From Octopus vulgaris (taxonomy: Eukaryota): a stretch of 64,000 nucleotides of DNA. Below the pieces are notes generated by a model, which saw nothing but the letters and a program-made list of their open reading frames with translations, was not told the DNA's origin and ran no database searches. A program made the position numbers and the translations under genes. The DNA lies in NCBI GenBank assembly GCA_951406725.2, contig OX597818.1, positions 43,772,001 through 43,836,000 on the forward strand. Direction: 5' to 3'. Shown in pieces: positions 20,001 through 23,000 of this stretch. Within the stretch, counting starts at the first letter, position 1; every line of letters starts with the position of its first letter.

Positions 20001-23000
20001 CTTAAGGGTTTAGAAACTTAAAGAGATATGAATTAAATCATTTTTAGTGGTGAAACTTGAAGTAGATAAAGCTGTAAGTAATAGTGTGTAGTATATTAGA
20101 TTAAAAAAAAAACCTTGGATGGAAAAAGTTGAAAGCTGTCCAAGATACATTATTTGACAGATATTTGTCATCTTGTTTGTTAGCACAACATTTTGGCTGA
20201 TATACCCTCCTGCCTTTATCAGGTGTCTTGGGGGAAATTTCGAACCTAGGTATTTTTTTCAATATTATTATTATTCAGGTCACTGCCTGGAATCGAACTT
20301 GGAATCTTGGGGTTAGTAGCCCATGCTCTTAACCACTACGCCATATGCCCATGGGCAATTATGGAGTGGATTTTAGCGCTTATAAATCTCTTTTCCTATC
20401 CTTCCTTAATACTGGTTCCCATATACTATTCATATCTGCACTCGGTCTGCTTAGGAGGTTGTTGTGTCCTAGCATATGTACTGCTTCTTTTAGTCTTCAT
20501 ATTTTCCAGCGGTGTTCTCTGTATATTATTTTAACTTCATCCCACAGGATGGTCTCCATTTTTCCATACATGATCAGCTATACCTGATTTATTAATATAT
20601 CCTTGTGTCACAGCTTTGCGATGTTCCTCAGTAACAATCTATTAAGCAACAACTACCCCAAAAGCATACTATCTACTCCAATTATGAAGGAAAGAGAAGA
20701 TGAAACCAATAAACTATCTACTGTCTGCCTACCCTATGTTAAAGGCCTCTCCAAAAAGATACAAAAGATATGTGGCCCATATAATATCTGGACAGTATTC
20801 ATGAGTAATATAACACTTTGCAGATATCTCCTTCGGGTAAAATCACCAATAGAAGAGAATATGACCAAAAACTGTGTGTACTCCATCCCGTGCAGTTGTG
20901 GTAGGTTATACAAAGGTGAAACATGCTGCCCCCTCAAAATAAGGGTAGAGGAACATCGCAAAGCTGTGACACGAGGAGATATTGATAAATCGGGTATAGC
21001 TGATCATGTATGGGAAAATGGAAACCACCTCCCCCTGTGGGATGAAGTTAAATAATAGACAGAGAACACCACTGGAAAATACGAAGACTAAAAGAAGCAG
21101 CGCATATGCTAGAACACAACAACCTCCTAAGCAGACCGAGTGCAGATATGAATAGTATATGGGAACTGGTATTAAGGAAGGATTGGAAAATAGATTTATA
21201 AGCCCTAAAATTCACTCCATAATTATCCATGGGCATATGGCATGGTGCGCGCTACTAACTCTAAGATTCTGAGTTTGATTCCAGGCAGTGACCTTAATAA
21301 TAATAATAACAATAACAACAATGAAAAAATACCTTAGGAATGAGAACCCAGGTTTGAAATATCCATAAGACACCTGATGAAGACTGGAAGGTATATCAGC
21401 TGAAACGTTGTGTTAACATCAAACAAGACGAGGACAAATATCTGTCAAATGTAAATAATGTACATAATTTCTCATCTCTTAAATATAGAACTCTGCTGTC
21501 CAAGATGTTCCACTTAAATAAGTGTTTGTTTAGGCAGTGGTTTGATTTTTCAACAGTTATACCTTCACAAACATTTTTCAAAACCATATCAGTGGGAGAT
21601 ATCCTGAATGTTTTTAGAAAGTATTTAACAATCAAAATTTCATGCCCTTTGGTCATTTTCAAACATTTTCGTCAATTTTCAAGTAATTGAAAGACATTCT
21701 ATAATGCTTAAGGTTCAAAACTTGAGGACAACACCTCTCTCTTTACCCTCACTTTTGTTTTCAAGTGAAACTAAATAATAATAATAATAATAATATCACC
21801 ACCACTTATATACTATATATACTATACTAGCATTATGACCCGGCGTTGCCGGGTCATAGTGCTAGTACATGCATATGCAGCTGCGTGTGTGTGCACATTC
21901 ACGCGAGTACTGTCCAAATCTCCGACCAATCACATACAGCTAGCTGGCATTCAATTGGCGTATCAAGTTTCGTGCATTGTGATTGGGTTTTGGATAGAAA
22001 ATTCACAAAAAAGTCACTTCTCTTGATTTTTTTAATGGCTTTGCGAGGTGACTGGGGAAATGTGCACGACCACCCTTGGACTGTTTTGAATGACCATAGA
22101 AAGTGCGAGCCCTCTAATTGAAAAATTGTGGATTTGTATAAAAGACACACACAAAGACATTTTGCCGTTTATATAGAGATTATGGCTGTAAATGTTCGGA
22201 ATATCAGCTGTCATGTGCGATGTGTCAGTTCTTATTAAAAATGTTTCATCAGTTTGTTAATTTTTGTTAAATATAAAATACTGCTAAACTTTATTTTTAT
22301 CTAATTCACTCTGTAACATTAAAACATTTTGTTTTCCCATCAAGGTTTGGAAAGCTAGAGTCAGTGGGTATGAAGAAGCAACCAAATTATTCAATAGTTT
22401 GACTGATGATAAAAACCCAGAATTTTCTAAATATCAAGGCCTCATAAAAAAATTTGTAGTAGACAGCAATGTTGTGGCCCAAGAAAAAGGCCTGGAAGCG
22501 GTGCTGGCATATGTGGAAAACGCACAAGTGGCTACAAGGTTTGTATTTTTCATTTTATTTTATTCTTAAATTTTAAAATAGTAACCGTTTTGGATAGTAA
22601 TATAAGTATAGTTAGCTTTTTTGTTTTTGGATTTGGTTTGCAAGATTCTTTATATGAGTTCGTGTGTTGAAGCATATTCTGTTGTCAAAACTATCGAAAT
22701 GGTTGCAAGACGCAACGAAAATTTTAGAAAGTAAAAGTAAGAAATAAGTGGAAATTTTACCAGTGAGTGTATTAAATAATAAGGCACTAAAAGAGAATGA
22801 CTCTCCCCAAACACAACAGAATATAGTTAGCTTTATATACCTTGAAATATATCATTGAAAATGTTTCTAAAAAAAAACATATATATACTTTGCATTTCTT
22901 TTGGGTAATATTTCATACATATCATCATATATTGTTAAAAATTAAGAGAACTGCTAGTGTAATACCTGGAAGTTTCATGTCAGTTAGTTGTATTGTGTCT

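Follow-up and report, generated by a model that had tools for sequence, protein, structure and literature searches.

The insertion described here occupies positions 20135 to 21506 of the window, i.e., the whole 64,000-nucleotide stretch of Octopus vulgaris DNA analysed (contig OX597818.1), and is a decayed, 5'-truncated Penelope/Poseidon-type retrotransposon accompanied by an inverted partial copy, both enclosed by a 12-bp target-site duplication (TSD; GCTGTCCAAGAT) at 20135-20146 and 21495-21506. It lies in an intron of an XMAP215/CKAP5-like gene, the one that follows what appears to be the first coding exon, with the main copy in the sense orientation; exons of this gene were located on the plus strand at ~14016-14075, 22339-22530, and ~23650-23800 (TOG domain, E 3e-23). 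Two further structures were noted nearby: at least three copies of another tRNA-type repeat with a different head, both direct and inverted, at 19053-19860, and a near-perfect 20-bp hairpin with a 3-nt loop at 21825-21867, which may be one end of an element, Helitron-like or otherwise. The features of the insertion were as follows:

20135..20146, no strand: left target-site duplication, 12 bp (sequence repeat)
20147..20638, minus strand: inverted 5'-truncated partial copy with the ORF end, head, AAT run, and hammerhead (arm alignment)
20182..20227, minus strand: decayed minimal type I hammerhead of the left arm, with core changes relative to the family majority
20278..20350, minus strand: tRNA-derived head of the left arm, with intact A box (TGGCGTAGTGG) and B box (AGTTCGATTCC)
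20609..21201, plus strand: 3' remnant of the Penelope/Poseidon-type ORF, comprising the end of the RT thumb, linker, and GIY-YIG-type endonuclease, with the residues ...YKGET (protein comparison)
21231..21293, plus strand: tRNA-derived head of the right arm, 30 nt past the stop, with a 10-nt deletion through the A box
21295..21322, plus strand: (AAT)n/(AAC)n spacer
21340..21342, plus strand: start codon of the next ORF unit (family consensus; amino acids 1-59 match 21325-21501)
21369..21414, plus strand: decayed minimal type I hammerhead of the right arm, with no helix III and an unpaired base before stem II
21415..21494, plus strand: beginning of the ORF as far as the longer of the 3' ends (tail position 168), corresponding to the one-sided "tail" of PLEs
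21495..21506, no strand: right target-site duplication, 12 bp (sequence repeat)

The TSD, ORF stop, both tRNA-like units, AAT run, and hammerhead were all present where an earlier note on this DNA had placed them. Its remark that the tRNA-like unit was better kept in the inverted arm agreed with the deletion through the right A box, and no T4 run was found between the tRNA-like start and the ribozyme, as it had also claimed (none in 21200-21520, nor in the sense strand of the left arm). The ORF remnant (88-91% to the family protein; 50% to the related protein P0003, E 9e-52) ended at a TAA stop (21199-21201) and was frameshifted near 21050, where the left arm, as previously pointed out, retained A4 and the right arm A3. 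The inverted arms (20152-20629 and 20948-21450) were 81.6% alike, and each differed from the family majority by 6-7%. The arms departed from the consensus in 31 and 28 of 471 columns and had only 5 derived bases in common, at least 3 of them CpG decay, so that they decayed mainly independently. The composite hammerhead assembled from the two arms in the earlier note was the family majority sequence itself. The ribozyme of the right arm, with a predicted cut after 21409, fell within the first 35 codons of the ORF; judged by core or stem changes, that of each arm is probably dead, and these changes together with the divergence of each arm indicate that the window copy is dead. The inverted copy terminated at the shorter 3' end of the family (tail position 137), and the two arms used one each of the two 3' ends of the family. 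The earlier idea that an inverted terminal repeat couples the head to the ribozyme did not hold, because an inverted partial copy inside the TSD is the ordinary PLE insertion layout in the excerpts of PMC8557442 available to us.

The family unit and its tRNA-derived head

The family unit, rebuilt by upstream walking with DNA searches and a pile-up of copies, was ~2.66 kb in length and contained a single open frame, 840 codons long or 835 when counted from the first Met. Its order was the ORF stop, 30 nt, the head, (AAT)n, ATG, the minimal hammerhead within the first 35 codons, and the remaining ORF, and the leader from the head to the ATG, seen in tandem units, was 121 nt. Family-wide, the ORF opened at the ATG equivalent to 21340..21342 and continued through the hammerhead; the P0003 homologue had a similar peptide over the ribozyme near its N-terminus. 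The related PLE proteins P0003, P0004, and P0008 were found on contigs of ~2.7 kb, close to one unit length. As in EN+ PLEs, the RT motifs DKG and YxDD plus a CCHH-bearing GIY-YIG endonuclease at the C-terminus were present in one ORF, and the linker without a Cys cluster was that of the Penelope/Poseidon clade. The RVT_1 match (E 2.6e-6) was below the cut-off of Pfam, which gave no GIY-YIG match in the ORF, so the endonuclease assignment rests on motifs and homology to P0003. Further EN+ PLE characters were partial tandem pLTRs (the layout of the tail-to-ORF junctions), inverted 5'-truncated copies, a one-sided tail of 30-40 bp, and a minimal hammerhead in the pLTR, here a predicted ribozyme without helix III and with palindromic 15.2-16.2, an unpaired base between 9 and 10.1, and a short helix I. 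From 5 insertions in 31 evenly picked 10-kb stretches of the 2.8-Gb genome, ~45,000 insertions (roughly 15,000-105,000) were extrapolated. A distant-protein query returned this same family, and no other PLE family, in 30 of 30 loci, and a scan for viral contigs found nothing.

The earlier note had asked whether the tRNA-like unit was in the same place family-wide. In loci found by ORF DNA alone, the head directly followed the ORF stop in 27 of 29 (two of these loci were arms of one insertion; one of the two misses was truncated, and the other had the head in its inverted arm). An 18-nt head pattern had 3685 exact matches genome-wide (0 for the reversed control), and the head is thus not a chance likeness. 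The head was compared with 27 tRNA sequences of the genome, which covered six isotypes (Arg, Ala, Thr, Cys, Lys, and Glu), and scored best with tRNA-Arg(TCG). The head was not a functional tRNA gene by the signs searched for: no cloverleaf fold, no match to the tRNA model of Rfam (RF00005), and no call by ARAGORN were obtained. Neither it nor the ribozyme was recognised by Rfam and ARAGORN, in the window or in a near-consensus copy, and single-strand folds of the arms of the window were no better than those of shuffles. The A and B box pair was absent from all 80 related PLE loci of metagenome contigs, and a scan of 50 of these loci by ARAGORN was negative, so that the head was gained specifically in this lineage. 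Contigs of two other organisms crossed the ORF end and reached 25-28 nt into the head, which is suggestive and short of the 31-letter threshold for bridging.

At 20 places (e.g., position 10925 of the window, L052, L216, L266, and L318), (AAT)n runs, the spacer of this element among them, were directly followed by the fixed start of a different, abundant repeat. A chimeric family consisting of the head and this other body was considered and rejected: only 5 of the 20 places were flagged with a head upstream.

Where copies begin and end

The ends of copies were analysed in the first 100 exact head matches listed on contig C1, in position order, a few of which were both arms of one insertion or duplicated segments. 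ORF sequence lay upstream of the head in 20 matches and the other 80 were ORF-free, so that copies with the tRNA-like unit and ribozyme but without the ORF, for which the earlier note had proposed a search, do exist; the hammerhead was downstream of the head in 72 of the 100. With a query of 3' sequence only, the ORF was upstream in 1 of 29 loci. Eighty of the 100 head-bearing copies started 0-7 nt upstream of tRNA position 1, the position at which tRNA-type transcripts start. Beyond -7, none of the 80 ORF-free copies matched ORF-type upstream sequence; TGCCC was kept in 24, 21 of which had fold-back bases, not those of the ORF type, at -8/-9. The ORF-free copies adjoined an inverted partial copy (60), flank (17), or a direct repeat (3), and a TSD of at least 8 bp, mostly 12-13 bp, was found in 29 of 80 (0 of 80 in the control). 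Since most copies begin exactly at the head, it is likely the element's own promoter.

Among 82 copies with the ORF start, 12 reached the head and 8 had an intact head start, 4 of which began there and 4 continued into the upstream ORF; the latter indicate that longer tandem or circular templates also exist. At tail 124-128, 16 of the 82 copies (e.g., L157, L166, L169, and L173) had their 5' ends in a second sharp pile-up, just upstream of the first priming site and without a promoter motif. This is perhaps a processing or end-resolution site, and it indicates that sharp edges can have other causes.

At the 3' side, 38 of 81 ends were at tail 130-147 and 26 at tail 160-175; none was at the predicted ribozyme cut (tail 85), and these 64 lay 45-90 nt beyond it. 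This distribution fits priming at internal sites of an uncleaved RNA. In excerpts of PMC11167929, the Anolis Poseidon RT primes on uncut RNA at two internal sites within the ORF start, and a lone minimal hammerhead did not cleave in the experiments excerpted from PMC4209133. The RNA of ~180 nt ending at GUU that the earlier note envisaged is therefore not the template of the copies. Such an RNA could exist as a by-product.

Transcription, priming, and rival explanations

A and B boxes, together with a start that precedes the A box by 7-14 nt, are consistent with a tRNA-type Pol III promoter, and Pol III stops at T4 runs. The 2.66-kb unit contained no TTTT and 32 A4 runs. When the ORF of the unit was shuffled by synonymous codons, a mean of 2.9 TTTT was obtained (P 0.028 for none), and 42 of 43 control PLE ORFs (at least 350 codons) held at least one TTTT; exactly one run was present in 7 of 80 control spans. 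Markov nulls, using an earlier consensus 51 nt short, gave P 0.08-0.20 for the absence, and TTTT ranked outside the 12 most depleted 4-mers of the same consensus. Because the distant-protein query returned one family only, a control within the genome was not available. The sole T4-free control ORF (L341:2198-4190, a PLE ORF on a metagenome contig, without TTTT over 2 kb) had no tRNA head and had T runs in its 3' UTR, and does not, lacking the head, replicate the pairing of a T4-free unit with a head. The absence of TTTT is thus modest evidence, and it means that Pol III might transcribe the whole ORF. In three RNA runs of one organism, the strands were equal and no pile-up of read starts or ends was observed at the head or the cut, with libraries that were unstranded and fragmented, reads from many copies, and a first reference without the ribozyme.

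Overall, the head is probably the start site of the element, with a promoter likely to be of the Pol III type, the polymerase being deduced from the A and B boxes and the start position. A stronger version, in which Pol III transcribes the autonomous element end to end and a captured tRNA head thereby yields a terminator-free RNA of 2.66 kb, appears somewhat unlikely at present. In the same tentative and rather doubtful reading, translation of the 835-codon ORF would proceed from a 121-nt leader of tRNA and (AAT)n that bears no Pol II cap, and run-off cDNAs would account for tens of thousands of SINE look-alikes.

In the mechanism that we propose, RNA would start at the head edge, 0-7 nt before tRNA position 1, and would stay uncut because the lone minimal hammerhead is weak. 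Priming by the element's RT/endonuclease would then take place within the opening 120-160 nt of the ORF, as it does in vitro for Anolis Poseidon. Priming at the first site would be followed by run-off at the 5' end of the RNA, giving SINE-like copies of ~270 nt that would often fold back into a head-to-head inversion, and priming at the site of the next unit on a longer tandem or circular RNA would give ORF-bearing copies such as that in the window.

The edge at which copies begin might also have a structural origin. The head would then be a passenger, i.e., a tRNA or SINE fragment captured after the stop of an element transcribed from elsewhere (by Pol II or by read-through), and the short copies would come from RT stalling or fold-back at the palindromic head hairpin, or from an intermediate cut there; we regard this as unlikely. 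The head junction is indeed a hairpin (-10.8 kcal/mol) placed exactly at the edge, and only one other 30-nt window of the unit is more stable, so that a structure-linked stop is not absurd, and fold-back junctions centred on the palindrome were common. The pile-up from tail 124 occurred without a promoter, and pass-through in upstream repeats (4 of 8) did not differ significantly from the 20 of 100 above (p 0.07). However, the most stable 30-nt hairpin of the unit (-16.1 kcal/mol, within the ORF) stopped only 1 of the 17 distinct copies reaching it; the head was passed by 20 of 100 (p 5e-9), a contrast that speaks against simple stalling. Without any fold-back, many short copies were joined at -2..0 to flank or to inverted pieces of unrelated sequence, the edge coincides with the tRNA-type transcript start, and B-box columns were closer to the consensus than other head columns, a weak difference (3.4% vs 6.1% differences). 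Transcription from the head is the preferred reading.

The earlier note had left two options, a Penelope family driven by an internal Pol III promoter or a tRNA-headed SINE mobilised by Penelope machinery, of which the former fits best. If the short copies were a true SINE, Pol III would transcribe each from the head it carries, the copies would act as masters for the Penelope enzyme, and the protein would come from a separate Pol II RNA, a scheme to which we give about as little weight as to a passenger head, or marginally less. They have the A/B-box tRNA head of tRNA-derived SINEs and begin at it, contain the hammerhead, both priming sites, and no internal TTTT, outnumber ORF-linked copies 4:1, and bear PLE insertion marks. 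Nevertheless, no diagnostic site (head and tail) separated 80 ORF-free from 47 ORF-linked copies, numbers that give limited power (best p 0.006 of some 700 tests), and three common variants occurred in both classes. Median non-CpG divergence was 5.2% in ORF-free and 6.9% in ORF-linked copies (unbiased set; p 0.41), and the 3' ends of the two classes matched. Instead of a master lineage of its own sharing only the 3' tail with its partner, the whole short element, including the head, belongs to the autonomous unit. The 3' ends of short copies fall at ORF +120 to +160, but the Anolis Poseidon RT requires the first 172 nt of the ORF in excerpts of PMC11167929, which by analogy may count against them as templates. 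It is therefore likely that the autonomous element produces the ORF-free copies as by-products and that they do not form a SINE lineage of their own. The remaining explanation, a one-off insertion of a tRNA-derived SINE into a single Penelope copy, has nothing in its favour beyond the look of a single locus; it is refuted by the head in the same place in the loci found by ORF DNA, no free-standing head with another body was found among the 100 head matches, and we consider it extremely improbable.

Relation to known elements

Octopus tRNA-derived SINEs named OK, OR1, and OR2 were reportedly described by Ohshima and Okada in 1994. The present family is likewise an octopus tRNA-derived retroposon, and its head was closest to tRNA-Arg among the isotypes sampled. 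In the excerpted literature OR1 and OR2 are cited as CORE-SINEs, whereas the head of this family runs straight into AAT and PLE sequence; it might nonetheless be identical with one of OK, OR1, and OR2.

Among Penelope/Poseidon EN+ PLEs, the family resembles Anolis PAc (Poseidon_Ac) as presented in excerpts of PMC11167929 and PMC8557442: both have a single ORF with RT and C-terminal GIY-YIG, tandem and inverted pLTRs, a one-sided tail, a hammerhead overlapping the ORF start, and two 3' ends inside the ORF start. The minimal type I hammerhead motif, here identified from sequence alone, is the same as that reported for metazoan PLEs in the available part of PMC4209133. The same excerpts of PMC11167929 and PMC8557442 describe pLTR promoters with a 5'-UTR intron in D. 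virilis Penelope and Chlamys-3. Unlike the EN+ PLEs known from these excerpts, the octopus pLTR holds a tRNA-derived A/B-box head, at which 80% of head-bearing copies begin.

The SINE-like repeats SM-alpha and Sj-alpha of Schistosoma are likewise mobile repeats in which a hammerhead follows a Pol III-type promoter; according to the portion of PMC6765202 available, these are arranged in tandem, do not code for protein, have canonical hammerheads, and are given no named partner, whereas the octopus module serves a protein-coding element as its pLTR. Animal non-LTR retrozymes, as portrayed in parts of bioRxiv 10.64898/2026.07.22.740005, are non-coding, pLTR-related, hammerhead-bearing copies proposed to use PLE enzymes, and form tandem arrays, unlike the octopus short copies (3 of 80 ORF-free copies in direct tandem, 60 of 80 in head-to-head inversions); the words "tRNA", "promoter", and "octopus" had 0 occurrences in the available text of that preprint. 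Helenus, Ajax, and Cassandra also carry a small-RNA-derived sequence within a retrotransposon terminal repeat, but in the excerpts of PMC10886601 they are non-autonomous LTR elements, and the octopus family is an autonomous PLE. In the literature searched (outside Repbase, Dfam, and subscription journals), including excerpts of PMC4758252, PMC4824008, PMC3531059, and bioRxiv 10.1101/596502, no description was found of a tRNA-type promoter in a PLE pLTR or of a tRNA-headed, PLE-dependent octopus repeat. The available main text of a 2026 octopus repeat annotation (PMC13282606) made no mention of hammerheads or ribozymes; its supplements and repeat library may hold the family.

The insertion layout, ORF type, and hammerhead motif are already known for PLEs, and the tRNA-type head in the pLTR is the part for which no description was found. 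To our knowledge, transcription start sites are known for very few PLEs, and the octopus genome itself appears to map one, in that 80% of head-bearing copies end at a single edge. If the polymerase is Pol III, this would be an autonomous retrotransposon taking over a tRNA-type promoter, and, if true, an autonomous element could give rise to SINE-like copies directly, with no need for a SINE to be born separately. If Pol III makes the whole mRNA for the 835-residue enzyme, the family would provide a natural case of a long Pol III transcript that is translated. A SINE-looking repeat with roughly 45,000 insertions should carry the annotation of a Penelope pLTR.
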